A stretch of 64,000 nucleotides of DNA, from contig CAJINV010000002.1 in NCBI GenBank assembly GCA_905178155.1, positions 1,919,216 through 1,983,215 on the forward strand. Reading direction: 5' to 3'. Every line of letters starts with the position of its first letter. Position 1 is the stretch's first letter. This stretch comes from Amoebophrya sp. A120. Its lineage: Eukaryota > Protista > Dinoflagellata. The notes below the pieces were generated by a model. It made no database searches. It had not been told where the DNA came from and worked only from the letters and a program-made list of their open reading frames with translations. The translations under genes were made by a program, and so were the position numbers. Of the stretch, positions 16-35,050 are shown piece by piece.

Positions 16-1019
16 TCATCCAAGTCCAACTCCAACCACAACTCCGAAACACACGAAGAAATACAGAACTATTCCCAGAGGTGGACCCAAGAAAGGACAG
101 CGTGTTTGCATCCCATACTCAATTTTGTCAAACGGTCCGAAGCAGTACACATCTGCACGACCTCCGCTGGCGTTGTCGATCTTATCAAATGCAAATATCG
201 ATCTGGGTCTGGAAGGCGAAGGATGCAAGGTCTGGCGTCCTCATGCATATTTTGCATGACCCATGAGGTCTGGAATGTAGGACATAGCATGACAGATTCT
301 GTGAGAGTTCTATCATGCCTATCCTGCATGAGAAACTGCCTCTGAACTAGGTCAACAAAAGTGGGCAGCTTTTGGTAACTATGCAACACATGTTTTTACA
401 TGATTCAGGTTCAGCATGACAAGTTGCTTTGTTCCAGACCCAAACATATTAATTTGCATTTGATAGATCTCGTCCGGGTACAGTCCGCTCGCCGCACCAT
501 CCTATCCACTGCAAAAAGTATCGCACTCGTAGTAATTGCTGTTATCTTCTTCACGCATGAGATGAAATCTCACACTCTAGCTTTGCCTGATCCACCATGA
601 CAAGAAACTGCATTTATTTTCTACAGTTCGGAAAATTTCAATTTGTAATGCAATTTATATATACTAGTACGTGTACGATACTGTTTTGCAATGCATACGT
701 CCTTCAGGATGTGAACGGCTTCCTCCTTCGCGTTGAACAGCCCAATCATGCCGGAATCACAGGAGAAGAGGTTACCCGCGAGGCCCTCAACCGACTTGGA
801 AAACCCGATGGAAGGACAGGTCGCAGAAACGTCGTTGGCAGATGCAGCTTGGCCATCGGCAGAAAGCTTTTGCTGGTTTTCGCGTTCATGTTCTTCTGCG
901 TTGACCACCATGCTGGCAGCCAGTTGTGCCGTGTCAGCGGAGGCTGCGAGCAGGAGACCGGCAGCAGACGCGGAACGGTACTTGCTACGCATGGGCAACG
1001 TGGGATGGTGGTGCGACAT
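16..1019 (-). CDS. Hypothetical ~171-aa membrane protein (hydrophobic N-terminal stretch, C-terminal TM); 2 introner introns
   Basis: Removing 503-697 and 183-465, each plus one 5-bp TSD, gives 516 nt in frame: ...HILKDGAASGLYPDEIDNASGG...LGIVLYFFVCFGVVVGVGLG*. Start codon choice is uncertain. Confidence 0.65.
183..465. mobile_element. Introner family A (283 bp)
   Basis: TIR tatcaaatgcaaa..tctgggtctggaa; TSD gatct/gatct. Confidence 0.9.
503..697. mobile_element. Introner family B (195 bp)
   Basis: TIR tatccactgcaaaaagtatcg; TSD catcc/cgtcc. Confidence 0.85.
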
Positions 1020-1684
1020 GGCTACTCTGCCGTACAATGATGAAAGCTGTTTTATTCAAAAATTGGCGCAAAGACGGCAAGAGCCGGTAGAGCTAGAGAA
1101 AGTAAAAATTACTGTGTAGCGACGAATGTATAGAGATGCTCAGGAATAATCTTGGCTGTCTGAAAAAGGGGTACTGCTGCAAGGGGGCAGCTAGTTGCAT
1201 GTCCTGGTCTGATCAATTTTTTCAAAGCTGTTGTACTGTCGCTCTTGCCTTAGTGGTTTCGCTAGCAGGCGTGAAAGACATGATCTATCGAGAACGAATT
1301 ACCTTTATTAGAGCCGGAGCTTATACACAAAAACGAGTAAGGAAGAACGAAACGAAAAGGAGGCAAAAATGCGACGAACACCAGGAACAAAATTAATGAC
1401 GAAGACGACAGCGCGCTTTCCTTTTTGAGGAACGAAAACGAAAAATTCTACTACAGGTGGACGGACGATGGAATCGAAAGCAGAATGTCAACGAAAATGC
1501 AACGGTCTTCTCGCGAATATGAGTAGCAACCTTGGCATCACATGAGGCAACAAACCACGTTGCAGAACAAGGCACTCCTGTGCGAAGGGTAAGTACAAGG
1601 CGACCAGGGCACGAGTGGCCCTTGCTCCTCGGGGAATGTTAAAATCTGGCAGCCGACAACGACCGGCAACAGAGTCGTTTCGGC

Positions 1685-2460
1685 CATGATATTACGGCGG
1701 CCAAACCCTTCGCCGGGCGGCAAAGCTGACGAGTTTGTCTCGGCTATCGGCCGCACGCTTTGGCGCTAGGTAGCACCCACAAGCATGCGGCAAAACGGTG
1801 CGCGCCTGATTTGCTGATCGCGATATCACGCCAGCTGCCCCTCCACCACGGGCGCCAATACAAACACGCGGCGGACGCCAGTGGCAGAGCGTGCGGGCGC
1901 AGCCGCGGAGGCTACGAGGGTTCCGGCCCAACGAACAGAAAGTCCCTGGCGCAGGCCCAGCAGACCGAAGCACTTCGCTAAGCCAAGCGACACAGGCCCC
2001 CCGGCGAGAGTGGGGGCGGCCCAGGCCGGCTGCCGGGCCAGCCTGGGGCCGCCCCCCCTCGTCCTTTCGGCAAAAGCGAGCGGCCACGCGCGCCCGGCCC
2101 GCCACCCCAGGGGAAAAGCACAGACACAGGCACAGGCGGCGCGGCACTAGGTTGGTAGCTCTTTTCGTCGTTCGGCGGTCGCGGTTTCGTCAGTTCCGCG
2201 GCGCTGTCCACCGCGCCGGGCACCCGGTCCGTTCACGTATTCAACGAGCGCTGCTACGGTGGCGGGCGCCAGCCGTCAGCCAATACGTAGATGGCCAACA
2301 AGGCCACGCCGGCGCTATCTCCTCAATACTGCGGAGAGATACAACGCCACGGCGCCGGCGCCGCTGCACTAGCTCCCGGGCGCGGGGGGACTGCAAAGAC
2401 AAGGCAGGGCCTGGAGACGGCCCCCCGCCTGGCGGCCGGTGATGTGATGGGACGCCGGAG
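1685..2460. other. GC-rich non-coding intergenic island
   Basis: Abrupt GC/CpG-rich block with G/C runs punctuated by short A-tracts; boundaries approximate. Confidence 0.6.
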
Positions 2461-3154
2461 CACGTAAGAACAACAACAAAAGCCGCCGCCTCTCCTCCTC
2501 TTGCTTCTAACAAGTGGCGCGCTTTGCTTTCGCGTTTTTCGTTTTGCAAACAAGATGAAGACTACATGGCCGACAAAGCAGATGCAGAAGGTCCTCTCGC
2601 ACGGATAATACATAATAGTTGCTCCAAGCTCAAATGGAAACATCCCTCACTCGACTGCTCACATCTTCCTCTTCGTATACGAAAATAGAAGTGCTATTAT
2701 TTTCTTTCAGCCTTGTGCCGGTTCTCCTTCCCCCTCAAAAAAGCGTACATGTCGTGGAACAACAGAAGCCGTGCCCCTGCAGCATCAAATCAAAATATTG
2801 ATTCACGACAAAAACCCAGGGCACGATGGTGATATTAACACTCGTTCCGCTAGGGCACCATTGCGCGTTGAAAATATTCCGCGTCCACCAACTACAACCG
2901 TATTCAGGTGGTCTTGCGTAGTACTCTAATATTCACAGTCTCGACCAAAACTTGTGAATGTCATGTCGATGTCGCTTGAAAATTATCTCGCTACTGAATT
3001 TTCAATGTATCCATATAAATCAGGTTTTCATTTTCAAAAGTATCGTCGTTTTGAGTCCACTTGTTCGCCACTTAGAAGTGATTCGTTGGATTCATCTTCT
3101 TGAGAAACTACTACAGTCCGGTCTTATCCGCCAACACAGTTCATGTTTAATGCT

Positions 3155-6100
3155 CTATGACAGCGCCTCCAAGAACGTCATATTCCGGATGTCGTTCGGT
3201 ACCAAAAAGTAGTTACTCGGCAACGGCGGCACGTCGGGCATCGCGACGTGGAGAATCCCTTCGCTGATATCAATCCCCGTGACGAGGATGTATCCCGCGA
3301 GCTGCATGTACTGCAAATCTTCCTCGGATTGCGCCCGGATGACGGCGAGGGCGGGAATATGGAGGTGAAAGAAATTTTGGTTTGAGGAGGTGTCGTAGTC
3401 TGGCATGCCGTTGGAGGACATTCATCAAATGTTATTTTTTCATATGCAGCATACATAGGTTTCGAGTCCTACAACATGTTCTTGACAGTCTTACGACACC
3501 TCAACTACCAACATCAAAGCTTTCTCTTTCATAGGTGTGAATCAGCTCAGAAAGCCGTGTGCGGTCAAACACCGAAGTTGCTGTTTTGATTTTTTTTGTC
3601 ATGCAGAAATCAATAGCAAATGCCATCAATGGCGACATGGACATTTGTTTCTGATGCGCGATACTACGTGCATAACATGATCTGTCATGCATAAGAGCTC
3701 AGAGGAAAAAAATCATGGAGGTACTCAATTGCGGGAAACTGCGGATGTTTCCGTCCATGTCGGATCGGTATTCTAGCCTTGTCGTGTCGCTTATCGAAGG
3801 AAAAAGATTTGTCATGCGGAGCTTGCATTATGCTGGTTTTCTGTTCTTCATTTGTGCATGACAAGTTGAACCTATAATTTCAGGGCTCGCAGATACATGC
3901 TGACGGTCACCGTTGTTCCAATACTGCATTGCTTGTCCTACAAGAAAAACCAGATAAAGATAACACTCTGCGAGCGCCCGCCCATGACAAATTCGATCCT
4001 CCTTCCCATACACTGGAGCAAATTGACTTGGTGAAGAGGAAAGGAGCCGTGGTAAGCCGTGAGGGGTACAAATTGCTGCAGCACGAGGGGAAGCTCTTCG
4101 CCAGGCTGGGGAAAGGGGAAACCTGGTTTAGATTTGATGGAACGCGCATAACAAATGCCGACTTGAGGGAGCCACGACTTGCATCACATATTTTCATCTT
4201 GATCTTTCGCTGAGTGATCAAATGGAACGAACACGCATGAAGAGAGACCCCACACAACACAAAAATCAGAAATTCTTCATAACAAATACCGTTGCTAATC
4301 GGCGACACGCCCTGGAAGTACTCCCGCATCCTCATGTGCCTCTGCATCCGCAGCGTCTGCGCGTCTTCGTGGAACGCCCCGTCGGTTTTGTCGATAAACG
4401 CCACGTCGACGTTTTCGGTCTCGAACGCTTTGCGCAGTTTATCGGCTAAGATGTGGTCGTCGATGCAGAGAATGGTGTCGATGTAAAATTGCCGAACCAG
4501 GGTCTGGAGGATATCCACAGTCGGGGTGCTAGGCGCGTTTAGGATGAGCCCGGATTGGGAGATGCGCTTGACATCTGTATGTGTGATTTAGATTTTGTAT
4601 GTGTGGTTTTGTAAATACGGAGTGAGAGTGTCGAGTTCGAGGAGAGCAGTACAGATTTGGCTTTAGATAATGGAACCGCATGAAGACATCCTGACTTCGC
4701 CTATACCTTCCGACATCTCCAGTTCTAGCTGGTGTTTCTTCAACTCCTTCGCCGTATTTGCGTTGCTGTTCGCGATTACTTGGTCCAAGAAAGAGCTCCC
4801 CATCAGCTTCTTATTTACCACCGTCGCGAGCCTGCTGCAGACCTGCTCGTACAACGGTATGTTGTCGCTCCACTGCATGTTGCCGTAGAAAAACGTTATC
4901 CTCTTTGTCTGCTCCTCCTCCAGAAATTTCGGTATTGCGCAGTGCACGCAACTCGGCAACCCTTTCAAAGGCTCTGAGACCGAAGCCGTATACCTGGTAT
5001 CTGTTTCGACGTACAAAGGCGTCCTCGCCCTTCTTATCGCGTAGTGCCAGAGGATTTCCGACACTACCGATTTCCCACTCCCTATCCTATGTAAAAACGT
5101 CCCCACCCCAAAGTTGTCATGTAGATTTGCAAGCACAAGAGCATTTGTATATGCGCATCCCCATGAGAGACATTTCCCATCGTGTTTTGGAACTTGTAAT
5201 GCTGCAAAAAGGATAAGGAGATGGATTTGTTATGCGGCTTCTCTTGCTAAGCTGTCCTCCAGTGCAGCCTGCAACTTGTCATGCGTGATCCCTAAAACTT
5301 CAAGTTTTGTGTTGCAAAATCCCCATCTTGACTCTGGGGTGGTGACGCGTTTACTCAGGATACTCCCGTCTGACCCACACACCATCACCCGCGGTGCCGC
5401 CGCGCCGACTTCTATATCCTGCGTAAAAACGTCCCCGCCCCAGAGTTGTCATGCGAATGTGCAATGACAGGAACATTTGTAATGCGCATCTCCTCGAGAG
5501 GCATTTCTAGTCGTGTTTTGTAATGCTATAAACAGAATGAGTAAATGTATTCCTCATGTGGCTTTCCTTTCTAACCAGCACTACACTGCAGATGGAAGCT
5601 TGTCATGCAGAACTGCCAAAACTCGGAGATTTGTGTTGCAGATTTCCCATCTTCACTATGGTGTGGGGGCGTTTTTACGTAGGATATTCTATGGCGCGAA
5701 TTCGTCTCCTCTCGATGACCGCGGCGCAGTTTGCGTACTGGTTCATCTGGGGGTTTGCCGCGGCGAATTCCTGCACTGTTGGCCCGGTGATCTGCAAAGT
5801 GCAGCCCCGCCAGGTGTAGAAGCCGGACCGGGAGCCGGGGAGAATGGAATATTCTTGCTCAATTACCATTTCCTTCCCGAAAATCTCCGCGGTTCTGGTT
5901 GGGTCCGGCCCTCGTTCGCTGTGGCAGACCTTCACAGTCACCGGGTCGTAGAGTTTGTCGTCCACTAAAACGCGGTATTCCGTACCGGCGTCAAGCTCTA
6001 TGCGCCGGGATCGGGGGACTTCCTGTGTTTCATTTGTTTTTGGATCATGATAAAAGTGGGCGTGATGAAGAGGCACGGTGCAATTCTTGCTCCCATGGTG

Positions 6101-7545
6101 CAACAGCCATTGAGTGTGACGTTTGTAGTGCTTTCTCATCCAGTTGCAGCATACCGTCATAAACAGAATCACATTCACACAAGGTTGTTCTCAAGATCGC
6201 ATTCAGCAGCATCCTTACCCTCGGCTCTGCCGCAGATTCTATCCCCGCCGTGCTGGTCATCCCTCGATTTGTCTTGCTAACCTCCGATGTGAAGTCCGGT
6301 ATTGGCATGAGCCCCGTGCTATCAAATGCAAATATGTCTGGGTCTGGAAGAGGACAAGTTTGTCATGCACATTTTCCATGGTCTACGATGTCTGTTATGC
6401 ATGCCCGCCTAGCATCACAGATTTTCTGAGCGCTTATCGATGCGCATCCCGCATGACAAATGCCCTATCCGTGTAGGCAAATTTGACTGCTCTTGCTGCT
6501 CGTGCAATACAGATTTTTTTTAGCATCCCAATGCAGCATCACAAGTTGCACTGTTCCACCTTCCAGACCCAGACATATTTGCCGTTGATACGTGCCAAAG
6601 GAGCTAGTGTTGCCCCCCTGGGAAGAAGCGTTATCGAAAGACGTCAGTAAGTTTGGGTTCGAAGCCGCACCCGCCGAGCTGGCACTGCCCCCACCATGAC
6701 TGCCCTTCTTGTGTCCGCCCTTGTTATGCTGTCCTCCCCCGCCGTGTTTGTCAAATGACGGCCGGTTGTGTTGTTGAAGGTGGTGCTGTTGACCTCGTGC
6801 TCCACCGTGGGGCGAAGGCTGTTGCTGGTGCTGCTGGTGCTGCCCCCCTGGCGAGGGTTGTGCACTGGGATTGCCGCTTCCAGCCGCGCTTCCGCCTAAT
6901 AACGGTTGTAATGTCGGTATGCAAGAAAAAAACTGCGTAAGTGTAAATTTGTGTTGCAGAAGATGCAACAGAGTTCCACTAGTCATGCCAGACAGCCACG
7001 AAATCCTCTTTTCATGTGTGTTTTCCCTTACAAACCATGCATGACAGGTTTTCTCTGTCATGTAGAGCAAATTTGTGATGCTGTTCCTCGAAGAAAGTTA
7101 CACCTACACACTTTTTTTCCTGGATAGTCGGGCTGGACTTGATTTTCCGTGCGAGTTCTTCCATGGAGGTTTATCAAATGCAAAAATGTCTGGGTCTGGA
7201 AGATTGCAGCCTGTCATGCTAAATCTGCAGCATGCAAAAATCTGTGTTGCATGATTACCAAAAGTCGTCCAGTTTTACCCAAGTCGGGAGGGAGTTTCTC
7301 ATGCAGGATAGGCATGAGAAAGGTCTCGCAGAATCTGTCATGCTAGGTCCTGCATTCCAGACCTCATGGGTCATGGAAAAGCAGCATGACAAATCGCGCA
7401 TTCTTCCAGACCCAGACATTTTTACATTAGATAAGGTTTGATCCGCAGCTGCGACGTTGGTCGGGTCGAACCCGGACTGCGAAACACCCGCGGCAGAAAA
7501 GGCCTGCGACAATAGGTCGCCTAGACCGTCAGGGGCGCCAGACAT
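3155..7545 (-). CDS. CLP1: Polyribonucleotide 5'-hydroxyl kinase / cleavage factor Clp1 (~675 aa) with Q/H/G-rich N-terminal extension; 7 introners + 4 GT-AG introns
   Basis: N-domain ELDAGTEYRV...AEIFGKEM...FYTWRGCTLQITG, Walker A PRVMVCGSDGSGKS, SGLILNAP, RMREYFQG, C-domain LIHTALAVIRA...LAGYILVTGID...LPSNYFLV. GT-AG introns at 6023-6218, 4575-4706, 4123-4289, 3581-3724. Spliced length 2028 nt = 676 codons. Confidence 0.88.
3358..3533. mobile_element. Degenerate introner (176 bp)
   Basis: tatg...cata ends, weak TIR, decayed TSD gggaa/ggtgt; element+5 removal restores LIHTALAV. Confidence 0.65.
3792..4010. mobile_element. Degenerate introner (219 bp)
   Basis: tatcgaagg..atttgtcatg / catgacaaat..ccttcccata; TSD decayed; element+5 keeps the frame. 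Confidence 0.65.
5083..5362. mobile_element. Introner family G (280 bp), inside the Clp1 Walker A
   Basis: TIR tatcctatgtaaaaacgtcccca; TSD ctccc/ctccc. Confidence 0.9.
5415..5686. mobile_element. Introner family G (272 bp)
   Basis: TIR tatcctgcgtaaaaacg; TSD ttcta/ttcta. Confidence 0.9.
6320..6590. mobile_element. Introner family A (271 bp)
   Basis: Family A TIR; TSD cgtgc/cgtgc. Confidence 0.92.
6918..7126. mobile_element. Introner family F (209 bp)
   Basis: TIR tatgcaagaaaaaaactgcgtaagtgtaa; TSD gtcgg/gtcgg. Confidence 0.9.
7172..7433. mobile_element. Introner family A (262 bp)
   Basis: Family A TIR; TSD aggtt/aggtt; interior inverted relative to 183-465. Confidence 0.92.
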
Positions 7546-8358: not shown

Positions 8359-9043
8359 TCATGCGAGCTGTCCGCAGTCCGCGATCACTACTGGCTTCAT
8401 GGTTTTTCCGCTGCTGGACCCGCAATTTTCGATTTTTTTCAGCACCATCATCCCCAACTCGCCATTCGACACTTCGCCAAATACCGTGTGCTTCCCATCC
8501 AACCAATCCGTTTTTACCAAACAGAGGAAAAATTGCGATCCGTTTGTATCTTTCCCCGCGTTTGCCATGGAGAGTATTCCCGGGCCGGTGTGCTTTAAAG
8601 TGAAGTTCTCATCTGGAAACTTCATGCCGTAAATTGACTCACCACCGGTGCCGTTGCCGACGGTGAAGTCACCCCCTTGGCACATAAAACCGGGTATGAC
8701 GCGGTGAAAGGTCGTGTTTTTGTAGTGGAGGGGCTTGCCGGATGTGCCGATACCTGCGGTTTACAAATTTGGAGGGATGATGCAAAGATGCTGATTGTGG
8801 ACAACTACTCTGTGCCTGTGATAGAAAGCCGGCAACCTCAAAGTACTTCGTGATGCACGATATAAACCACGCAAAAATGAAATCCGTACCTTTCTCCCCT
8901 GTGCAGAGTGCCCGGAAGTTTTCGCAGGTTTTTGGCGCGTGGTCTGTTCTGAGCGTGATTTCGATTCTCCCGGCTGGTTCCTTCCCAATCATCATGTCGA
9001 AAAAAACGACGGGGAGGGAGTCTTGGTCGTGCTGTTCCGCCAT
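8359..9043 (-). CDS. Cyclophilin-type peptidyl-prolyl cis-trans isomerase (182 aa); one GT-AG intron 8754-8889
   Basis: [14 protein letters not shown]...[27 protein letters not shown]...[27 protein letters not shown]...[15 protein letters not shown]...WLDGKH.VFG. Confidence 0.97.
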
Positions 9044-13252: not shown

Positions 13253-14489
13253 TTACGCGGTGGCCTGTTGCATGTAGGCAATGCAGTCCGCACGCTCCTT
13301 CTCCTTCTTCATACCGGCGAAGACCTGGTGGTCACGTGTTGCGTTTTTTGCATCACAAGTTTAATTCCTTTCATTCTTCTTCACAAAAGTTGTTCATCAG
13401 TACGCGTGCATGAGAAAGCAATTTCAACATTAGCATTACGTGTCTATGCATGACAAAAAATCATGCCATTTATACCATCTTCGTTCCTGGAATGTAGGCC
13501 TTGGGGTTGACCAGAAACTGGTCCATGTGTGCCGGGCTCCACATAATCTCTGCCTCCATATTGGCCTCGGAATACCTTTGAATTTTGATTGGTTTATATT
13601 TATATGCACGACATATTCGTTTTTTGTTTTTCCACGCGAAACAAATTCAAGTTCAAGTCAGTACGACCTCCATAGTTGGGCTTGTACTTGCTGCTATCCA
13701 TGACAAAAATCTGTATACTGGTATCCCGCGGTGCTTCCGCTCTTGCGGCTGAAGATCTTGTATGAACTGCAAAAGTATCGCACTCGTATAAATGCATTAC
13801 AAATTTCCTCAGCATGAGAGATAAAATTTGTAATGCGGATTCACCTTAACAAAAAGATTTGTAATGCAAGACTTGCATTTATACGAGCACGATACTTTTG
13901 CACAGGATATCTTGTTCAGATTTGGGCCGGACTTGGACTGACCACCTGCTTCTACGGTGTGGCATATGGATGTGTCAGAGTTGAAATCGACAAAGTTGAA
14001 ATAATTTGTCATGCATAAAATGGATGCCAGTTGGAAACCAGATTCTAAATGGCGCATGACAAATTTCGGCGGTCCCTAAATCCAGTTTGTCATGCTGTTG
14101 AGGCAAAGAAGAGTGATTTTCTCATGCTACTCTAGCAGCTCGAGCTGTAAGTGTAACCCCAAGCAGGCATATAATCGGCCTCACTTACCTGCTCCGCAAC
14201 ACACGTGCCGCGGGTCATGCATTTTATGCATTACAAATTTATTTCAACTTTGACGATTTCGATCCTGACACATCCATATGGCACTGTGCGCACTTAGACT
14301 TGAAGATCTTGGCGCCCTGGGGTATTTATTTTTTTTGTGTTGCGATTCGGATTCGGATTCCCATTCCTTGCATGACAAAACAAGTTTCTCATGCGCAGGT
14401 GCACTGCAGACTAAGATACATGAAAATTGAATTCCCTGTACCTTCTTGGCATCGCCTTCCGGCACGGTGACATTGGGTTCCGGCTTCAT
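13253..14489 (-). CDS. Mitochondrial cytochrome c (114 aa), 6 exons; only fragments appear in the ORF track
   Basis: Spliced: [114 protein letters not shown]. GT-AG introns 14317-14441, 13576-13718, 13325-13475; introners 13965-14278, 13761-13909. Confidence 0.96.
13761..13909. mobile_element. Introner family B (149 bp)
   Basis: TIR tatgaactgcaaaagtatcg; TSD tcttg/tcttg. Confidence 0.92.
13965..14278. mobile_element. Introner family H (314 bp), inside the CAQCH codons
   Basis: ~55-bp imperfect TIR tatggatgtgtcag..aaagttgaaataatttgt; TSD tggca/tggca. Confidence 0.92.
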
Positions 14490-15986: not shown

Positions 15987-18900
15987 TCACAACGTCCCAT
16001 ACCCCGTCACTCTATCAGAGGACCCCGGCGACCTTTCCTGATTTTTCAACAACCGGTTTGGAATGAAGATCGGCACACTCGCTCTACTGCTTCCCCTGGT
16101 CGACGACGTGTGCTGCATCCTCCCAGGACCACCCGAAGTGGAAGTTGCGCCTTTGCTGTTCTCCCGACTGTGCGCAGTGTCCGAGTTGCTTGGGCTCGCC
16201 GAATTCAGCCGCACGGGGATCCTAACCGACTGCTCGCCCAGCCCCGCGCCCGCGTTGCCAAAGCCATCCCCCTCCGTTGCGTCGCCGAGCTGCATTTGGT
16301 TACTAGTCGACATGATGAGGTGCTTGGTATTGCTGTTGTGGTGGTGGTCCATGTAGGGGCTCCCAAGAACTCCTGTTCCAGTTGCAGAGGGGCTCCTGCT
16401 AATATTCATAGGAGAACCGGCTCCCCCCATACGCTTCGACTTCGCCTTCGCAAGTTCGTTCTTATGACAGTGCACAACCCCCCCCTCCCCCTCATTTGTA
16501 TAGCATGAACGGCAATTCAAGCAGCAGCAAGAATGCCGGTTTTGCATGAGAAATTTGCGCTGGAGTGTAGTGCTATTTGGGCTGCCAGAACTTGTCATGC
16601 AAACAGTACCAAGAGGCAAAGCAGGGTGGATTGGTTATTTTGCATGACAAATGAGGGGGAGGGGGAGTTGTGCACTGTCATAGTTCTTCGTGTAGCGCCA
16701 CAACGCCACGGCGGAGAAGATGAAGGCGAGAATCCCGACCCCGAAGTATGCATTGCAAAAATGTCAGGGTCTGGAAACTTGTAATGCTAAAGGTGAATCA
16801 TGATGGACGCACTGCAATACGCAGCTATGCATGACAAATTTTTTGGCTGCCATGTGTTTGTGTTACGTATTCCGCATGGCAAACTGCATTTTTGCATGAC
16901 AGGTAAGAGGGGCTTTTCGTGCATATGCAACACAGAATCTCGAGTCATGCCAGACAAGCATGACAAACTTGCATTCTTCCAGACCCAGACATTTTTGCAG
17001 TTGATACGAAGAAGGTTTCGACGATGGCGGACAGGTAGTATTTGTGATCGGGGTTCGGGATGGACCCGGTTGCTCTATCGTAAGGAAAAATCTCCCCTCC
17101 CCATATTGAAAACGCATGCGCCTGAAAATTTGTGATGCAGATTTGTGACCACAACTCCTGTTTGTCTTGCAAGAAGGCAACTCTAGAAATTTGACCGCAG
17201 TATGTAGGCGGTTTGTGATGCTGTTGGGTCTACAGCGTAGACGTTTGTCATGCTAGGCACCTACGTCAAAACCTCTCGCCTCAGGCTCGGCATATGCCTG
17301 CAGTCCTCTGCTGCAAGACAAATGTGATCTGTGTATCCAAATCCAGCATCAGAAGTTTCGTTTTGATATGGGGAGATGGGATTTTTACTTTTGATATCCT
17401 CCACTCAAACTTCGCGGGTCCGGGGTGAGGGAAAGATCGTTTACATCGGCTCCTGCATTATTCATCATTCTCGGTGACATCAGCTGATCACCAGCGTTCT
17501 GTCCGCTAACTTGGCCGCCTGCTGGAGTGGTGACGCCTGTGGCTGTGGTTCCGGTCGCTGTACCTGAACCGTTTTTATTCGCCTCTTCCTTCTTCTGTTC
17601 CTCCGTTTGTGCTGGAGGTTTACTCGCCTTCCGCACCCGCACAGCGTCCGCTACGACGCTCAATTCCACGGAAACTTCCTCGGTTTGCGAATCTGCGATT
17701 TTCCGGAGATAGTCTTCGGTGAAGAGATACTGGTAACCGTCCCCGTTGATGGACTCCTCAACGGTCACTTTCACCGAAGTCGCGTCTGCACCAGTTGCAC
17801 TACCCGTAGTTCCAGGCGAAGACACTCTTTTCGCCCGCATCTCCTTCCGCAACACCAACCTGACGTGGTCGTTCTCGAAATATTTCCGCACATTTCCAAC
17901 AGATAAAGTCCCCGCGGGGAAAATGGAGTGGGCGAACTTGCCGAGGAACTGGATCTTCAACTGCTCTATCAAGTGCAAAAGTGTCTGGGTCTGGAACAGT
18001 GCATGCTTGTCATGCTTGCCTCGCATGACTGACTCTTGAATCTGTCATGCACGTTACCCAGGAGCTCTGTTTTTCTGTGATGCACAAACGCAGTCTGTCA
18101 TGCAGAATAGGCAATACCTAGAAGCTCAGAAACCTGCCACGCTGAGCCAGCATTTGTGGCCTCATCATGAGACGCCACCCCGCATGATCACAAGTTTCCA
18201 GACCCAGACATTTTTACATTTGATATGCTCCGAATTCCACTTTTCCGCCAACAAAATCCGCGGGACCTCCCAGTCCACAATTTCGCCCTGGATTTTCCGG
18301 ACTTTGAGCGTGATGAGATTCGGGACGAGGATGGGCTTATTTGTATTGCTGGTATCGGACGAAGACATTGCCGCGCCGCCACCGTTGTGCATCCCGTGCT
18401 TCGGAAAAGAGTCAATCGCGACGTGGTACTTCAGCAACTTCGGTTTGTCATCCGGTTTCGCGAGCGGGAAAGAGAAAATCTCGGATAAACACTCGTCCAC
18501 CATGCGGTCGTCCGAAACATGGGTGACGTCATCGTAGAGTAATGGGAAGTCTTCGGCGTAAACGGAGGAAGGTTTGCACACGTAGTCCGGGGTGAGTGTA
18601 GCAACAGCAGCGTCTGAAGTAGATGCCGCTTGTTCTTTCGGCTTCTTGGTAGTTGTAATCTGTTCCTCGTCAGAAGACTGACCTTCTTCTCCTTCGGCAG
18701 GTTCCTCCTCTGCTGCTGTTACACTGGGATACAACGCGAACAATCCCATTCTCGCGAACTCAAGTCTCCCATGTTCCGGCGGCGCGAGAGCGGACTGGTC
18801 CACCAGCATCATGAGAAACGCGTCCCGAAGTCGCATGTATGCAATGCAAAAGCAGCGCGCTAGTGGTAGTTGCAGTCATGCATGACAAATTCAATTTTCG

Positions 18901-21900
18901 ACCCTAACTAGCATGACAAGTTGCACTTTTGTTTTATTGACAAAATTTGTAATGCAATTTCTCCTAGTACGATACTTTTGCAATGCATAGCATGTAACTC
19001 GGATCCAAAGTCGCGTCGGAGAGCAGTGGTTCGGTAGTCAAGTCGCGGGAGAAATCTCGCTCGTCGTCCTCATCATCATCCTCGTCGGACTGCAAGACTT
19101 CGTGGCTCTTGCTGTCATAATTTTCGTTTTTGTTTTTCGAAGAAGAGTTCTTGCTTTTCCCGGAACCTCATCAAATGCAAAAATGTCTTGGTCTGGAAGA
19201 ATGCCAGACTTGTCATGCAGATTTTCTATGACCCATCGGGTGCGGGTCTTGTTCTGGTATGTAGGACATAGCATGACAAATTCTGTAAGAGTTCTATCGT
19301 GCCTATCCTGCATGAGAAACTGCCTCGCGAGTAGGTCAAAAGTGGACAGCTTTTGGTAATCATGCAACACAGATTTTTACATGATTCAGATTTAGCATGA
19401 CAAGTTGCTTTGTTCCAGACCCAGACATATCTGCATTCGATAAACCTGTGGTTTTCTTCGTATGCTGACCGCTGCTCCCTGCGTCCGCACCTTTGTCTTT
19501 GCCTTTCTTTTTATTCTTCCCCCCGATTTTTTGCAGTCGTTTCCACTTCCCGGAAATCCGGCCCGGGCCGACGGAGGTGATAAGAGTGCACAACCCCCTC
19601 TGTCTCCGCCAAGTTTGTAATGCAGGATACCAAGTCCACATCTTGCCTCTAGGCTCTCTCTGCATGGCAGATTTTGGAACCTCAAACTACAGTAGTACAA
19701 TCCGTGTGCAGATTTGTCATGCGGAACGCACATTTCTCCCTCTGTCTGTGTTGCTGCTTTTCGTGCCCTTCAAAAGAGGGGGAAGGGGGATTGTGCACTC
19801 TCATAGAAGTGACCGTCGTGCCGGAGGTCGTGGGGTCTGCGGTCGTGGCTTCTACCTCATCCTCGTGACTAAACTTCCTCTTCGTCCGGTGTAACGCGAG
19901 TTTCATGTCCTCTAACGGGATATCCAGTGCAAAAGTACCGTACTCGTACTTCTAATCGCAGTCATGCATTACAAATCTCGTTTCCAAGCCAAATCAGCAT
20001 GATAAATTCCATTTGTCGTGCTGGGCTAATTTGTAATGCGATTTATACTAGTACGATACTGTTGCAGTCCATACGGGAGCGTCACATCCGGCAGTTGGGC
20101 CATGATCGGCAGCGTAAAACGGATATTCCCGCGTTTGTCCTTTTCTGGACCTGTTTGTTGTGGCGTTTGTTCTTTTCCATCTGCGGCTTGTTCCTTCTCG
20201 CTTTTCACATCATCTACAGTTGTATCTGCAGCGAGAGCAGCGGCTTTCAGTTTTTCTTTCACCAAATCCTGCCAACCATCCTTGTCCGCGTCGCTCACCT
20301 TCACGTCAGTCGGGTCTGTAGTTCCGCTGCTTGTAGTTGTCTTCACCAAGTATTTCTTCAGCTCCTCCACTTGCACTTCCGTCTCCCCCAGAACGCTCTC
20401 CCCCCACCAGGCGAGCAAATGGTTTTTCCACAGCACACTCAGATCCACAGCCCCCAATTTCTCCTCGATCTGACTCTTCGCAATCACCAAATCCGGAAAC
20501 ATCACACGACTGCTGCCCCCCGCCGCTTTATCTTCTCCCTTTTCGATCAATTCCGTCGGGGCGGCGTTTAGGGTCAAAAATCGTTTCTCCTCGACTGTAG
20601 TGAAAATCGTAGATGATTCACCCGATCCTTTCGGTTATCCTGTGCAAAAGTATCGCACTCGTAGTAAGTGCATTTATGCATTACAAATCTCTTTCTCAAG
20701 GGAAATCAGCACCATTACAAATTCAATTTGTAATACTGGGCTAATTTGTAATGCAATACATACTAGTACGATACTTTTGCATTGCATATCGGTAAGAGTC
20801 CTTTTGCAACAGCCTTTTCCGGTCTGATCAGCGGGTAGTTGTTCCCCATGTTGCAGACGATCTCCCCCGCGAATTTGAAGTTTAGATTTTTGTACTGCTC
20901 CTCCGTAAATTGCATGTTCGCGGGGATCCCTTGGACCAGGTTGTGCTTCCCGAAAAAGGTTTTTCGTTCCCAAGGCGAGGACGCTTTGCTCAGGCTAAAC
21001 CAGTTGGAAGATGGTGAACCTTGTTCCTCTTCTACTTCATGCTCCAGTAAATCAATCGTCGGGAGGTTTGCAATCGAGTTATCCGCCACGGCGAAGCTGC
21101 CCTGTCCGAACGCCGCCTGGCAAAACCGCGCGGTCTTTTCCAAATTTTCCGTGATCTTTCTCGTCGCGCGGGTCCGACGGGACAGGTAAACGGACGGGAA
21201 AACGTTTGCGAGTAGTTCTTCAGACTGGTCGTGTTTTTCTTGTTCTTCCTTCTTCTCGATCACAACAGCGCCGGTTGTCGTGATCGTTGCGCTAGTTGTG
21301 GCAGCAGCAGCTTCCGGCGCAGTAGAAGTTGTACTACTACCCGATTTTTTGTTTCCCGCCGCTGCAGCACTACTAGCTGCAGTATCCGCCAAGACCACTG
21401 GCAGTGCCAACTTCGATCTGGCATCTCTAATCCGGAAGTTCGCAAATCCCTGGTGATTCGGTAAAAAATAGGCCGTGACCAAAATCTTCGCAACTGTTCT
21501 CCGCAGCAATCCTTTCGCGATCACGTTTGTGCAGAAGTCCACCATTTCGTTCCCATTTTGCTTCGTTCCAAACTCATCAAAGGAAAAAACCACGAAGCAC
21601 TCCACCTCATCCGACCGCGGCGTTTTGAAAAATGTCTGCATCGACGCGTGGAGAATTTTCTGCAGCCGGGTCACGAATATCAAATGCAAAGATCGATGTC
21701 TGGGTCCGGAAACTTGTAATGGTGCATTGGGAATAGTGAATGCTCTGTAATGCACAGCTACGCATGAGAAATATTTACGCGGCTTCGCGTTAGCTTTTCC
21801 GCATGACAAACTGCGTTTTTGCATGCCAAGCAAAAGGCGCTCTTCTTGGACACGCATTACAAACTCTGCAGTCATGCCAGACAAGCATGACAAACCTTGG

Positions 21901-24900
21901 TGCATCCTACTTCCAGACCAAGACATTTTTGCAGTTGATAGCGAACCCCTCATCGTCGCATTGGTCCTTGCTGATGAAGTATTCCCTGCCGTTATGCAAC
22001 AAAAAAACTGTGTAAGTGTAAGTCTGTGATGCAGGAAGTCCAAAACTGTATACGCTTGTCATGCTGGATGTGCGTCATAGGCAACTTGCATACGTGTTTC
22101 CACCTACTAGCTGCGCATGCCAGGTTTTCCCTGTAATGCAAAACGAATTTGTGATGCTGTTCTTCCTACAGAGTTACACTTACACAGTTTTTTTCCTGGA
22201 TAGGCGTCGCGCACCTCAAACTTCGTATCTGGGATCAAACTGGTCCACGGAAAGGCCCCGTTGAACTGCCGCCGTTCTTCCTTATCGGTATCCTGTGCAA
22301 AAGTATCGTATTCGTATTGCAATCATGCATTACAAATTTTTTTCTGAAGCTAAATCCGCATTACAAATTTTTTTTCTCATGCTGAGACATTTGTCATGCA
22401 TTTATACGACGAGTACGATACTTTTGCAATGCATAATCGGCGAAGAGAGATGATTTTACCCCCAGCTGCCGGAGCTCGATCGGGACAAAGTCAGTTTTGT
22501 GGTCTTTGATGTACAGCATGACCTCGGTTATCCCACGAAAAAACTGTTTCACTGTGATGGTTTTGCAAGATCCGCATCACAAGTTTGCTACACATGACAC
22601 AGAAAATTTGCCATGCGCGCTTTCCAAGGGAAAACACGCTCAAACATCCAATGCCTTGCAGGTGTAGCAAGACAAATGGTTCTGTGTTCCATTCTCTGCA
22701 TCACAAGTTCACAGTGAAACAGTTTTTTCTTGCGATATCGGTTTCCTGTCGCTTAATCGCTTCTTTCGCGTTGAATTGCGGAAAAGGTTTCTTCATAGAA
22801 TTCACCGGAACCGCCGTTGTAGTGGTGATCGGTTTATGCATTACAAAAGTATCGTACTAGTAGTAATTGCATTACAAATTTGCTTAGCATTACAAATGAA
22901 ATTTGTAATGCGGTTTTACCTTGGGAAGGAGATTTGTCATGCACAACAGCAATTACTACGAGTACGATACTTTTGCAATTCATACGGTTTTTCATCATCT
23001 TCCGGGATGTAGTCCAAAATGTTGTTCAAGGTCGTTCCGTCCCCCACGTATTTCCGGATGAACTGCCCTGTTTTCGCGTCGATCATCAACAGCGTCGGGT
23101 ACCGCTTGATCTGCACCGGGCACTCGTTGTTCTGTTGCAAATCGGTGCAGGGGAATTTTCGTAATGGTTTCTCCACTAACTTGAAATATTCCCCCTCCGT
23201 CGTGAATTTCTTCCCGTCGATTCCGTTCCGCGGTAGCATGTACCAGGGCATTTTCAAGTTCCAGTAACTGACCCCGTCCTCCCATTTGCTATCGTGCGCG
23301 ACAAACACAATCTCGGTGTCCTTCAACAGCCCATCATTGTACCACTCTGCGAGTTGCGGGGTGAACCGCTGGCAACAGGGGCAGCCCGTGTAGGCGAAAT
23401 AGAGGATGACCACCTTCTTCTTCGTTCTTTCCGGTGGTAAAAAAACACTGTCTGTGTCCACCACAATCGGCCCTTTTTTCGTCTCCTCTTCGGAAACTTG
23501 CTGGTGGGATTGCGTAATGTCGTTCGCATCGGGGACTAAGTTGTTCGCGAGAGGGTGGTGCTTGTGTAGTTTTTCCCCCAGTAACCGCACGTAGGGGTTG
23601 GTGGAAACTGTTGTGGTTTCTGTATTTGTCGTTTCTTCCACCTCTTTGTTGGGATCAATTTTCGTCGCACCGGGCAAATAGCTGGTTTGCAACCTCGTTC
23701 CGTCCAATGGGTTCTTCCGCTGCACTTGGAGCTTGATGAACAGTGTCTGGTGGTTCGGTTTCAGGAACTCAGAAATCTGCGTCGTAGTTACCGGCTGCGT
23801 TGATGTGCTGCTGTCGGAGCCTTCTTGAGCAGCGAAAATCTCCGTCCACGTATCGCTGTTCTGCACGCCCACATCAAATGCGGCGCTGGCTGGACTGTTG
23901 GAAAACGTCGTGGCAGTTGTGCCGCCGGACACCGCTGGTTGCGGAAGGAAGTTCGCTGGGAGAATCGATACATCAGACGCGTGGATGGAGAGAACTTGCT
24001 GCACATAGTCCGTTTCCTTCAAAGTGCCGAACAAAGTTTCCACATTTTCGTTCTGGTACACATCGGAATTCGCGGCCGTCTCATCGTCGTCAATAGCGGA
24101 AGTGGTCGTGGCCGTTTTCGCCTTTGTTCCGCTATGGTCATCTTTCGGAGGTAAAACCGGTTGGAGCAAAAAGGCCCCGAGTTTTTGCCCGTACAAGTCA
24201 GAAAGGTTGGCATGCTGGGCGGAGTTCGGAGCTGCAGTAGTTTTTTCTTTGGAAAGACTTTCCTTGTCGCTACTCGTAGCCCCGTGCTCCTCTTCATACG
24301 GCAAGACGGTTAAATCCTCCCGTAAGGTCCAAAAAGCCGCGATCAAGGCCTCCGCGAACGTTTTCGGACTGCACGTGATCGAAGAAGCGATAGCCACACC
24401 CGGGGAAGAAGAAGTCAAACCATTCGTGGCATCACTGACCGTTTTCAAACTCGTGAAGATCTCGTCCTGCTCATCCGTACTGATCTCCGTGTCGCCAAAA
24501 TTGGTACAGATCTCGTCGTTAACGCTGCATTTGGGGAAGGAGATTGCCGATGCGGCCGATGATCCAACACCGGTGTTCATCTGCATGGAACCAGCGGAAG
24601 AGGATCCAATTGTGAAGCAGGGGTGACTCAATCTTATCGGTTGGTGGAAGATGTTTTTTCCGTTCCCGTTCACCAGATCTTCTTCGTAAAAGACCACCGC
24701 CTTCATCATCGCAAACAACCCCAACTCGTCCTGGAGCCGGGACCGGACGGAAATTACTTGGTCTTCTTGGTCCTTGGCATTCTTGTTCGCAGTTGTCCCA
24801 GCAGCAGTTCCTGTTTGTCGTGATGAAATTGGCCCACTGCCGTTGTCCGTTTTCGTAAGGTATCCGAGTTTCCCCGCCGCCTTGACCACCGCGACAGTTT

Positions 24901-28040: not shown

Positions 28041-28379
28041 ACGCCTGTACCTATGCGTGCTGCTACGTACGCCTGAGGAGAACGAAGAACAAATCCGATT
28101 TATTCAGCGAGAATTGGTCGCGCACGTCACCTGACCGGGTATTGGCGTAAGTATGATTGCCAAGCTGGTTTCCTTTTTTCTACGCGATCTTGTTGCACTT
28201 TCATCTTACTTGTATAGATTTCTTCGTCCCTCTTGCCAAGAGGGACGAAACGGAAAATATTTATTTCACTCCACGCCGGAAGATACGATTCCTAGCGCTC
28301 CTTCTTGTTCTTATTCACTCGTCCTCATGCGCCATTTTTAGTTACCGATGATCGCCGCACCAACAAAACCACCCTCTAC

Positions 28380-31300
28380 CTACGTCGGCAGTGGGCCGTG
28401 CACGCAATACGCGGGTAACGGACCACGGTCGTTATGTGATGTTGAAGCCACTTTTGGTGTTGGTAAGCCGTTGTCTGCACCAGCTGACTCACCACCTCCT
28501 ACCGTCGAATTGCTCCCCGTGGTCGTTGATGAAAGAGACCTTCCACTTCCGCCATGCTGAACTCCCGCTGCTCTACTCTCCGCACTCGGGGAAACGAGTG
28601 ACAAGTACAACTTGAACAATTTCCGGAACTCCGCCTGGTCCACCGCGCCACCGCTAATTTGGTGCCCGTGCTCCAGCAAGGCGCGGTCACAGACGCGGCA
28701 AGCGGTTTCCATGTAGTAGGGGCTGTACCGCGGTACCACCCAGTAGTAGCTTCCTTTGCTGAAAACGACTTCCGCACCCTTGTACGCCTGTCTGGGAGGG
28801 TATGGATTGGAAGTTTTCGTCCATCGGGGTTGTGCGCATGCAAAATGGAGGAATAATTTTGCCACCATTTTGGAGCGATTCTTGTGTCTGTTTCTGAAGC
28901 AGCTACTTACTTACAACGTCGTCGGCAAGAACAGCAGTTTCATCTGTCATGCGCTTTGCACTTCTAGCACTTGGACATGCACAGCGTACAACGACGAAAA
29001 TTTCCACTACATAGTGTTTCCCCCCAGCCGACTCCGTGCATGTGGAAGGTGCGCCGCATCCAGGACCAGGGTTTCTTGTCCGTGTCGGAAAAGGCGTTGT
29101 AGAGACAACGGAGGTGCGCGTTGCTGGGTTGATTTAGATTTTCACCACCAGATGTCGTGCTCGTCGTTTCTTGTACAAAGAACGGCGGTATTCCGACGGC
29201 CTTGCGCAAGTAGTTTTCGTAGTTCCAAGCGAGGTAGTGTCCACAGGAAATTTCCCGTACACGTACAACTACAAATGCAGTCTCTGCATGACAAAACTTG
29301 CCTTCAATCCTAGTCTAGCATGACAAGTTGGACACTGCAAGATTAGCGGAATTTGTCATGCATTTTGTACATGTACGGAAAATTCTAATTCACATTGCAT
29401 AGGTAGTCTTTGGTCTCAGAGTTCGCGTGGATTCTCTCTTCCACAAGGGGAAGCGGATCCGCGGATGATAAAGCAGGGTCAACAACTCCACCACCAGGCG
29501 CAGGCGCTCCCGGTAGTACAGCCGGTTGTTGTATTTTCACGACTGGCGGAACCCAAAAAGACAATTTGTCCAAGTCTTTCGCGTTTTGCTTCGTTTTGAC
29601 ACTGATCCCGGTTTTCGTCGTGCGGTGGTGCGTGAGTCCGACGGAGGGGTAGAGGGAGGAGACCCTGGTCAGAGTCTCTTCCTCGTAGTGGTCGTAACTG
29701 GACTTGACCAACATTGCGATCCTCTGGGCCGCCTTGTCCGTTCTTTTTTCTAACTCAAACAGAAAGTGCTTCAGCCCCGGGCCCGTTTCGAGATAGGCGA
29801 TGTGCCGATAGAGCTTTTCCTTTTGTTCTTGCTCGGTTTTCGCAGTAGAAGTAGTTGTTGTACCTGTGCCCGATGCTTGTTGATGATCATGTCCTACCAC
29901 TTCCAACTTCGGCAATTGTCCACTCTCCGTTTTCTCCCAGGGCCACGCTAAATGTTCGTGATCCTTCTCGTACTGCTTTACGTTCTGCCGCATTTCCTTC
30001 CCCGGGTCGATGCCATGGTAGGTGAGAATTTCCGTCATTTCGTCCGCGTAGTACTTGCGGTTGTCGATCCTGGGATTACCCGTTTTCTTCCGCCCAAAAA
30101 GTGCGGGGCTGTTACCGTTCATCATGATTGGATACCCCGTCTTCGCGTTTACTTTCAGCTTGTCAATAATGAAACTCACAATCGTGTCCCAGCCGGACGT
30201 CAGCCGCTCAAACGACATGTACGGGATCAAGTAGTACTCAAACACACGTCGACTGGTCATCCACCCCAGGCCACCAAAGTGGTTCTCGCGAAACACGTAA
30301 AGCGCGTCGTGCCGGGAGTTCCTGTTTTCTGGTGTGGTCCCACTCCCGGGTGCAGGTCGTGCGGAAGTGGAACTCAAATCCCGGATGTTTTTCGTGACCT
30401 CCAAGCCGTTGTCGTTCCAAGCGGAAACGGAAATCAAAGAGTAGTCCTCGTCCATAACCGGGATCAAATTGCGGAAAAATTTATCTTATACTGTGCAAAA
30501 GTATCGTACTAGTTCTGCTACTAGAAATGGCATTACAAATTTTTTCCAGATGGTGGAAAATGGAACTTCTCATGCTGAATTGGCTAAGAAACCGATTCTG
30601 TCATGCTGTACTGCAAGTCGTAGTAGTACGACTACGAGTACGATACTTTTGCAATTCATATATCCAAAGACACCGACACATCCAAGTCATCCTCCATATG
30701 GAGTTCTCAAATGTTACATTCTCAGCTGTTACATGATTTGTCATGCAAAACTACCTTAAGCCGACAGATAATCAAGCTGCTTCGCATGACAAATCTCCGA
30801 AGGACTCAACAGCACCTAAATCTGTGCCAGATCTGTGATGCGAAAGCAGGAAGCTGGCCCCTTTGACTGTTGCCATTCTTGCATCACAAATTCATGTAAC
30901 AGTTGAGAATGTAACGTTTGAGAACGCCATACTCCAAAACCGCAACATGATCGTAGAAGAGAAACAGCAACCCCAACGCCCACATGTAGTAGATGTGCAG
31001 CCGCACGTGGATCACCGACCATAAATGTTGGTTGGGTTTTGCAAGGGATTTCGCGTTCGGGCCGGCATCGGATGTTATGTGGTAAAACCCGTTCTTCTGG
31101 TCATTCCAATATTCTGAATTCAAAGCCGGGAAAACCGAAATGCCCCCCGCGTTTTTCATTTTTCTAATCCCGGTGCAGGGTTCCTGGTGCTGGGTGAGCA
31201 CTAACGCGTCCATCACTGGCGGGGGCTTGCCATGTGGTTTGTTTATTTGCGGTGGCGAAGGTCTACTTGGGGGCGCTGGCGGTGCTGGGGGTTTGGGCCG

Positions 31301-33275: not shown

Positions 33276-33699
33276 AGAAGTGCAAGTGAAGTCGCTCCTG
33301 AACTTTTCATCAACAAGTGTGTTTCAATCGGGTCGGCAGTTGCAGTTGAGCAACACTTTGCGTGGATTTGCGTTGAAAATGCCTCTGCTCTATCCATAAG
33401 ACGTCGGGGGGCGACATTTTTCAAAAATGACCATGCACGAGCTGCGACAGGTGACGCTGAACCTGAAGCCACATGATGTGGGGACGAGCAAAATGCCGCG
33501 ACATATTGTGGATACTAATCCAACTAGTACATAGATACGGACCGACTCAACGACGTGGCGCAAAGGGGTTCGGGCCATTACTTAGACAGAAAAGATGGGC
33601 TCGCCAGCTGCCAGCACCGGACGACGGCACTAAGACATCGCCCCCTGTTGATCTTGGAGCACCGAACACCTCTAGGCCAAAAAGGAGTGCTAGACTGCT

Positions 33700-35050
33700 G
33701 GGTTACCGGACGCCGGCGTGCGGCGGATCAACACGGAAAACGAGCTCGCTGGTCGCTGCGCGCACTGAAGGCACACGTCGAACCACGCCAGCAAACAGAG
33801 ACACGGACGCGGCCGCCCGGATGCACGGTGGGGCGCGAGACAATCGGCGCGGGCGTGCAAAGGCGGAGAACCCACACCACCGGGCCCGCCCAAGGGAAGG
33901 GGGGCACAACGACTCACCCCGGTGCCCGGGCCGGGCACGAAGACGGGGGGCCGCATTTGCTGCGCGCCTCGGGGGGCCGGGCCGGCCTATTTATGACCCC
34001 CAGGCCCAAAGCCGGCCGCCCACGCCATGCATCCACGCGGCGCCGCCTTCCAGCGCAAAAAGGGCGGGCCTCCTTGGGGCAATGAGGGCAGCGCCGCCAA
34101 CTTTGGCGGCCGACGCCTTCGGCGCGCAAATATATGACGCGCGCCGGAGCGGGCGTGCCGGCAAAGGACCTGCGAAAAGCGCGCGGAACACACTGCAGGC
34201 CGGCGGGGCCGGGGGCAGGATGGGGCAGACGGCGAAAGCGGCAGCGGCTGGCGTAGCAAAATTTTGGCTCGTTCGATTTGCTGACCGCACGGAGCGCGCC
34301 TGCTGGGGCGCGCCAGCGGCTTCGATTGCTAGAGGAAACGAAGGAAGGGCCACGCCAGCAGCTTCTCGGACGTTGGGTTTTTTTTGAAAGGGCGACGGGA
34401 CACGCTGGCGCCAGGGCCGAGCAGCCTAACAGTAACGGCGTCGGCCCGGGCGCAACACGGAAACTGCGGCGGGCCCCCAACACTGAACGTCGCCCGCCAA
34501 GGCTTGCCCGCTGCCGCCGCGCCTTGCCGCTTTGCGGCCCAGTGCGAAGGCCCCCGCCCCAAAGAAACCAGAGGCGCCCGGGCAAGGCGGGCGCCTCTTT
34601 TTTGGCTTTTTTTGAAGGCGCAGGCCCAAGGTTTCGGCCCCCCGAGCACCTTCGCCCTGTGCGTCTCCTCAATGGGGTGGCGCTCGCCTTTCCGCTCTTT
34701 TGCGCATGCCTCGCGCTCTCTCTTTCACGGGCACGACTCGCACCACCCGGCGCGCCCATCGACGACTCTTGGATCGCCATCGCGGAAGCTGCTGGGCTGC
34801 AAAATCTGGCCACTGCAAACAGGTTGTCCGACTTACGTAAGCCCGTCGCTATTTGCTTTGCGGGAAAGTTGCTGGGGCTCAGCAACAACGTCGCCGCGAA
34901 CGGCTCTTGGGCGATTGGCTGGCCATTGAAAATCCGCAGAGTTATGGGCCCAACTAAGTCTAGAGGGCACCAGGGGCGGCCATGGGGCCCCAGTGCAGTG
35001 GGGACGCGCGCCCACCCTGCACCGCCGCGCTTTCAACAGACCGCCGCTTA
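33700..35050. other. GC-rich non-coding intergenic island
   Basis: Same composition; upstream of the GT13 gene; boundaries approximate. Confidence 0.6.

Follow-up and report, generated by a model that had tools for sequence, protein, structure and literature searches.

Introners have been described in Amoebophrya A120 (Farhat et al. 2021, PMC7789003). In the available part of that paper, their ends read TAT, seven free bases and AAA, they have 3-5-nt direct repeats and hairpin-forming ends, and they have non-canonical borders and lie in co-oriented genes. The terminal hairpin is presented there as the clue to tens of thousands of introns that Amoebophrya removes and spreads without normal splice signals, a detectable U1 or an evident transposase, and the lineage has unusual DNA packaging (available part of PMC11453091). 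The same part of PMC7789003 describes terminal IR and DR motifs only and mentions no shared internal motif, no rule for its spacing and no occurrence of one in GT-AG introns. We analysed a 64-kb stretch of eukaryotic DNA, hereafter the window, together with 605 kb of a relative's assembly. The short elements of the window agree with the above account, and because their ends match the published description, we infer from this likeness that they are introners of the Amoebophrya A120 type. Their interiors carry a 10-base word that is orientation-independent, conserved across dissimilar families, placed on a recurring spacing lattice and confined to short introns. A literature search with subscription papers outside its scope returned no report of this motif; three motif words had no match in the available supplement text of PMC7789003, and the motif had none in the available supplements of PMC12130899 (files 13 and 14 left out).

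Genes, introners and long elements of the window

All identified genes are on the minus strand. Pfam names CLP1, a cyclophilin, a tRNA endonuclease domain, a desaturase, a thioredoxin-domain protein and a GNT-I-like protein, and the cytochrome c gene was named from its translation. Rfam gave no match in the window at the gathering threshold. Splicing was read from mRNA-like contigs of the runs X1 and X2, taken as RNA by guess with a poly-T end. Among the 15 joints listed, 14 skip introns, including all five of cytochrome c, and one is a repeat jump; none of the junctions is spanned in the raw runs X9 and X10. Excision of each element plus five bases and of the GT-AG introns regains long frames of 2,281, 1,259 and 603 codons. 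On the minus strand of 39960-64000, a single frame of at least 5,155 codons appears once 22 short introners, three long elements, the cut at 50007-50144 and another GT-AG intron are taken out, and a weak PDZ match was the sole Pfam match in the four pieces of it that were scanned. GC-rich islands at 1700-2450, 11100-12100, 26700-28050 and 33500-35050 lie upstream of or between co-oriented genes, and their long ORFs have no Pfam match. The window contains 52 short elements with TAT...ATA ends and a 5-bp target duplication (TSD), as follows.

13761..13909, unstranded: short introner of family 0 (150 bp), 5-bp TSD, four sites; skipped in the mRNA-like contigs
13965..14278, unstranded: short introner of family 6, five sites; skipped in the mRNA-like contigs
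14 short introners of families 0, 1, 2, 4, 5 and 8, first half: 16463-16682, 16747-17006, 17076-17396, 17967-18225, 18838-18989, 19169-19442, 19579-19805
The same 14, second half: 19921-20073, 20636-20788, 21678-21940, 21993-22202, 22289-22435, 22529-22737, 22835-22984
Seven short introners in 183..7433: 183-465, 503-697, 5083-5362, 5415-5686, 6320-6590, 6918-7126, 7172-7433
Seven short introners in 28801..36683: 28801-29013 (singleton), 29238-29401, 30487-30660, 30697-30931, 31562-31815, 36098-36370, 36433-36683
11 short introners in 40253..50796: 40253-40572, 40667-40816, 41497-41721, 42454-42715, 43245-43398, 44847-45054, 45910-46080, 46178-46395, 47171-47319, 47847-48125, 50652-50796
11 short introners in 57535..63743: 57535-57678, 57804-57954, 58682-58827, 58889-59044, 59236-59454, 59637-59792, 59833-60088, 60180-60431, 60715-60945, 62950-63172, 63632-63743

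The first nine of the 14 introners in 16463..22984 are skipped in the contigs, and excising all 14 gives the 2,281-codon frame. Altogether 11 elements are skipped in X1/X2 (RNA by guess), 10 of them with non-GT-AG ends. The RNA joint at 19169-19442 is readable as GT-AG, and this element has apparently turned into a GT-AG intron. All 52 short elements lie inside coding sequence, with none in the ca. 14 kb of non-coding DNA or in the long cytochrome c UTRs. Intron length modulo 3 is roughly even, and element lengths show no 10.5-bp period. Three long elements are also present.

61526..62776, unstranded: long element of 1,251 bp, perfect 39-bp family-0 TIR, perfect TSD, no motif
53551..54200, unstranded: long element of 650 bp, 44-bp TIR, perfect TSD, no motif
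54532..56448, unstranded: long element of 1,917 bp, 76-bp TIR, direct repeat of up to 8 bp on its flanks, no motif; its excision joins the 5,155-codon frame

The motif thus separates 52 of 52 short elements from 0 of 3 long ones (650-1917 bp). Keeping the 1,251-bp element breaks the 5,155-codon frame. The long elements evidently moved without the motif and, going by the frame alone, were presumably removed from mRNA without it. The 1,251-bp element has 11-12-bp subterminal repeats of its own near both ends (61575-61700 and 62660-62723), which are unlike the motif. It also has several internal palindromes and is a candidate parent-type element. Neither 10 ORFs of the long elements nor 14 ORFs from the GC-rich stretches and the 1,917-bp element matched Pfam, and this search brought up no transposase or binding protein.

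Occurrence of the motif

The exact word GCATNACAA has 138 copies in the window, compared with a shuffle mean of 2.44 and a shuffle maximum of 7; the fuller word is (T/A)GCATBA(C/G)ARR. The copies are split into 119 in short elements, 11 in GT-AG candidates, three in exons, one in non-coding DNA and four at first unassigned, two of which fall in the exon 54201-54526 and bring the exon total to five in ca. 32.3 kb. The first-pass annotation had claimed that the motif fills short introners, looks scarce in exons and intergenic DNA, and also occurs in canonical introns. The densities bear this out, with 10.5 exact words per kb in short introners, 6.1 in GT-AG introns, 0.09 in exons (leaving out the two later-assigned copies) and 0.06 in non-coding DNA. 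The exact word is found in 50 of the 52 short introners and GCATNA[CG]A in all 52, and GT-AG introns exceed the intergenic background with a Fisher P of 1e-10 for the exact word. The recurrence of the motif in short introns is therefore confirmed. The introns inspected, together with their sites, are listed below.

13325..13475, minus strand: cytochrome c GT-AG intron without TIR, skipped in X1/X2; sites 13350, 13408 and 13448, all in the same direction
13350..13358, plus strand: motif GCATCACAA
13408..13416, plus strand: motif variant GCATGAGAA
13448..13456, plus strand: motif GCATGACAA
13576..13718, minus strand: cytochrome c GT-AG intron, one mismatched site CCATGACAAA; skipped in X1/X2
14317..14441, minus strand: cytochrome c GT-AG intron, sites 14370 and 14386; skipped in X1/X2
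37402..37519, minus strand: desaturase GT-AG intron, sites 37448 and 37480, 32 bp apart; reading frame and Pfam FA_desaturase on both sides
37674..37799, minus strand: desaturase GT-AG intron, sites 37700, 37733 and 37766; reading frame and Pfam
3581..3724, minus strand: predicted CLP1 GT-AG intron, sites 3596, 3649 and 3682, same direction, 53 and 33 bp apart
4123..4289, minus strand: predicted CLP1 GT-AG intron, sites 4146 and 4181, one exact and one weak
3773..4027, minus strand: CLP1 3' region, probably two more introns with putative borders; exact sites 3809 and 3856
4575..4706, minus strand: CLP1 GT-AG intron without motif
6023..6218, minus strand: CLP1 GT-AG intron, single weak site
8754..8889, minus strand: cyclophilin GT-AG intron, one mismatched site
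29124..29183, minus strand: 60-nt GT-AG intron without motif
42890..43052, minus strand: GT-AG intron that the relative also has (72.6% identity), without a conserved site
50008..50169, unstranded: degenerate full-length family-0 element, two sites 32 bp apart

Introns of the desaturase and CLP1 genes are placed by reading frame and Pfam only. Six of the introns (13325-13475, 14317-14441, 37402-37519, 37674-37799, 3581-3724 and 4123-4289) had been named in the first-pass annotation as canonical, TIR-free carriers of the word. All six are GT-AG introns on the minus strand in which the words are present; 37674-37799 is not free of element sequence, as it retains a family-0 remnant (47% HMM cover; 84 nt at 80%) and, judged by this likeness, is a descendant of a family-0 introner. 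The intron 13325-13475 has no family similarity by BLAST or HMM, and the two sites of 14317-14441 converge at 24 bp, a spacing that introners also show. As an element-free GT-AG candidate, 50007-50144 was rejected since it sits in the full family-0 element at 50008-50169. Here the frame fits the GT-AG cut and not removal of the element plus five bases; the element has, by this prediction, apparently turned into a GT-AG intron with part of its end exonised. The exact word occurs in seven of the 13 GT-AG candidates. Five of the 11 exact copies belong to 37674-37799 and 50007-50144, both with element ancestry, and the remaining six are spread over five of the 11 introns without likeness to any family.

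Conservation, spacing and introns in a relative

A three-site pattern recovered at least 157 stretches from a metagenome collection. We kept 149 loci, all from the assembly JACKZZ01, which amount to 605 kb without overlap. Among viral contigs, the two-site pattern matched 67 stretches, once each and mostly with two words per locus, and the three-site pattern matched none; two viral loci, L056 and L063, contain 14 copies of GCATNACAA in 4 kb, probably an unrelated repeat. One locus of the relative, L131, is orthologous to 38.7-52.7 kb of the window at 86-92% identity. At least six window elements, several of them among the 11 introners in 40253..50796, correspond to a precise empty site there that keeps one TSD copy. 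L131 has six insertions of its own and shares one element (46178-46395), one site of which is broken in the relative, and one GT-AG intron. These empty sites, own insertions and shared features show that the elements are mobile and that JACKZZ01 is a distinct relative. Near 40247-40571 and 47166-47319, the relative has a different-looking element within ca. 15-65 bases of the window insertion, which suggests insertion hot spots. In the relative, 463 of 556 short elements appear as jumps in predicted genes. The relative also has longer derivatives, with motif-poor cargo in the middle and the sites still close to the ends. Some from different families have ca. 200-300 bp of internal cargo in common, at ca. 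70% identity.

Longer derivatives with shared cargo: L068:6584-7838, L087:3862-4492 and L126:1561-2313; L076:505-1608 and L106:8429-9576

The 573 short elements fell into 18 multi-copy clusters and 30 singletons. Each of the 16 clusters that were aligned has two to seven sites, which are the best-kept part of otherwise dissimilar interiors, and GCATNA[CG]A is missing from only eight of 567 short TIR candidates. As the loci were chosen by motif and families 0 and 7 both match the pattern, these two families were kept apart in the conservation counts. In the other families, counted with intact TSD and with sites chosen by occupancy, fixed motif positions diverge from the family consensus by 6.6% and TIRs by 7.3%, against 26% for N and 25% for the remaining positions; the core four motif positions vary 3-5% without the occupancy filter. 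TSD copies differ at 7.7% of positions, and neutral decay after insertion therefore stays possible in young elements. Selection before insertion and selection after it could not be told apart by grouping the elements on TSD decay. The TIR itself begins with TAT, seven variable bases and AAA; positions 0-2 and 10-12 vary 1-4% and positions 3-9 vary 11-36%. These hypervariable seven bases often differ from one end to the other, in all families. Families 0 and 7 have a degenerate copy of the motif there, 31 bp away from the first internal site. In most families (window and L068-L216), the non-coding elements have an excess of 3- and 6-base indels.

The motif has no strand preference relative to the transcript (1029:1131 in elements; 22:28 in GT-AG introns, P = 0.48), and families insert in both orientations. 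The N of inverted partner sites showed no covariation in the 23 pairs tested, aside from small family 0 excesses in complementarity (100 vs. 86.5 and 146 vs. 133.7). Introners fold strongly (z -7 to -10), and five of the six motif-bearing GT-AG sequences folded do so no better than shuffles, 3581-3724 being the exception (z -2.9). The distance to the 3' splice site is not fixed, ranging from 17 to 300 nt. Spacing between sites is restricted. There are 556 adjacent same-direction spacings at 31-33 bp, each value occurring in 8-11 of 13 families, and further ones at 18-20, 39 and 49-54 bp. Convergent spacings peak at 24 and 42 bp and also occur at 55-57 bp; divergent spacings peak at 8-9 and 39-41 bp, with others at 30, 51 and 60-63 bp. 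At the family level the best period is 10.7 bp, matched at any period by four of 3000 cluster-level nulls, in a test that used clusters drawn by eye and set aside one overlap artefact. Spacing changes inside a family show no preference for plus or minus 10 bp, which speaks against strict phasing, as does the lack of a period in element length. From the sequence, the motif reads as a site on double-stranded DNA and not on RNA, and the protein-binding site proposed in the first pass is supported in the DNA form. For sites that point outward, the distance to the element end is 39-41, 47-50 or 60-62 bp, with R 0.82 at 10.5 bp; the jitter null tests clustering only, and 16 bp scores almost as well under it. 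In GT-AG introns, phase to the intron ends is not significant (P = 0.15-0.37). For GT-AG introns we discarded a suspected inverted repeat, 5' GATTTT / 3' AAAATC, which scored 6.8 against a cross-intron background of 6.3.

GT-AG introns of the relative were predicted by a gene finder trained on the window, which has no motif term and whose non-coding model included the window GT-AG introns. Its 243 calls gave 230 non-redundant introns and 208 on the better strand; 21 were dropped for overlap with families or TIRs, and 63 pass motif-blind filters. These 63 predicted family-free introns contain 15 exact words, compared with 1.08 in shuffles. A relaxed PWM site is found in 26 of them, with four expected, and is absent from 37, so most GT-AG introns are without the motif. 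Pooled with the 11 of the window, 74 family-free introns divide into 53 with no strong site, 10 with one and 11 with two or more. In the 11 multi-site introns, 10 of 16 spacings fall in element-preferred classes vs. 1.7 expected (0 of 20,000 nulls), and there is no TAT-N7-AAA signal at the ends. We then mutated 1,750 elements neutrally. Homology and end pairing were both lost in 919 of them, among which a single site survived in 49 and two sites in none. In simulations without the homology filter, elements that kept two sites have a TAT-N7-AAA score of at least 14 vs. 3.5 observed (P at most 2e-5) for up to 20% added divergence; at 30-40%, the end signal fades and only 1-2% keep two sites. GTAT donors occur in 15 of 21 motif-bearing and 21 of 53 other GT-AG introns (P = 0.02). 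Under these models, selection in place is the best reading of the arrays in multi-site TIR-free GT-AG introns, with extinct families outside the library as a caveat. The view that intronic copies are fossils therefore holds in part: it fits 37674-37799, 50007-50144 and the 21 predicted introns that overlap families or TIRs, and fails for multi-site introns without end remnants (0/919).

Possible roles of the motif and known systems

The factor that reads the motif must recognise double-stranded DNA, matter to short and not to long elements, and serve some host introns; we favour a host DNA-binding protein. Our tentative proposal, held somewhat short of even confidence, is that a host protein binds and probably bends double-stranded DNA, that phased sites loop short elements for transposition, and that such sites are also kept in some introns. 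A putative sequence-specific protein would bind (T/A)GCATBA(C/G)ARR, and its copies on one helix face would bend the DNA and let the ends of a 110-340-bp element meet for transposition. Elements of at least 650 bp would have no need of bending, which would leave an array in every successful short family. Arrays in TIR-free GT-AG introns would be the protein's own host sites, selected for a role in chromatin or transcription, and short introners may stem from ends of longer elements coming to flank array-bearing DNA. The length argument has only three long elements behind it, and the families may share modules by descent, which counts against a host protein. The word may still, with fairly low probability, be a subterminal site for the transposase or a TnpA-like helper of an autonomous element, with neutral fossils in GT-AG introns. 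Its conservation equals that of the TIRs, the sites are phased to element ends and remain near them in longer derivatives with internal cargo, real fossils exist, and GTAT donors are enriched in motif-bearing GT-AG introns (15/21 vs. 21/53, P = 0.02); there is precedent in En/Spm TNPA (available part of PMC2613891). The transposase repeat put forward in the first pass is nevertheless weakened because the long family-0-ended element carries another one; the fossil view holds for some introns. Moreover, neutral decay leaves no two-site introns once ends and homology are gone, and one word serves families with different TIRs, while CACTA subterminal motifs diverge between subfamilies (PMC2613891).

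Alternatively, a DNA-bound protein could mark short introns for removal during transcription and replace a lost 5' splice-site recognition, introners keeping the array because unspliced insertions are purged. We regard this as rather unlikely. The motif is confined to introns and occurs in both intron types, orientation independence suits elements that insert both ways, sites are kept in TIR-free GT-AG introns, and U1 snRNA is undetected in A25 or A120 (available part of PMC7789003). Against such a mark stand three motif-free long elements in the intact 5,155-codon frame, 53 of 74 GT-AG introns without a strong site, the shared old GT-AG intron without a conserved site, the broken site of the shared element, and site-to-end distances of 33 to 62 bp, which therefore cannot set the cut. 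A general intron mark for both splicing types, as the first pass had offered, is too strong because ca. 60-70% of GT-AG introns (37/63 without even a relaxed site, and the shared intron) and the three long elements lack the motif. It is also unlikely that many introns of this lineage are defined on DNA, with a protein bound to the GCATNACAA array telling the transcription and splicing machinery where a short GT-AG or non-canonical intron lies, which would have made mass invasion tolerable. If true, coding sequence could tolerate mass invasion by signal-free transposons. It is very unlikely that the word works at the pre-mRNA level, whether as a branch point, a pairing arm or a site for an RNA-binding protein: introners fold strongly and inverted site pairs can pair there, whereas strand bias and N covariation are absent, the 3' splice-site distance is not fixed, and some introns (13325-13475, 3581-3724) have same-direction copies only. 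It is hardly probable at all that a DNA base-modifying enzyme targets the word or that a mutation or repair bias produces it; the word, asymmetric and with one free position, is similar to methyltransferase sites, and fixed spacings and confinement to introns would be left unexplained. Under any of these models, a pull-down with the motif would name the missing factor, as one internal word with a free position and strict spacings provides a precise bait and precise reporter mutations. Should the factor prove to be a host protein that serves ordinary introns too, intron birth would be linked to chromatin.

Host DNA-bending proteins help recombination in several systems, such as Fis at the Hin enhancer, IHF/HU in Mu and Tn10, and HMGB1 in Sleeping Beauty. 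The role proposed here would be analogous, in that phased host-protein sites would ease looping of short DNA; unlike in these systems, the sites fill the whole element and also occur in ordinary introns, and the protein here is putative. In the available part of PMC2613891, the TNPA repeats of En/Spm (CACTA) are similarly a short word in both orientations near the ends, conserved like a cis-determinant. En/Spm has CACT(A/G) ends and a 2-3-bp TSD, whereas the window elements have TAT ends and a 5-bp TSD, and their word spans all families, is missing from long elements and also occurs in host GT-AG introns. In Micromonas and Aureococcus, MITE-type introners (PMC9860276 and PMC11282704, in the parts available) are also non-autonomous, TIR/TSD-bearing, intron-creating and gene-biased, but carry or recruit normal splice sites, and no internal phased motif is described for them in those parts.
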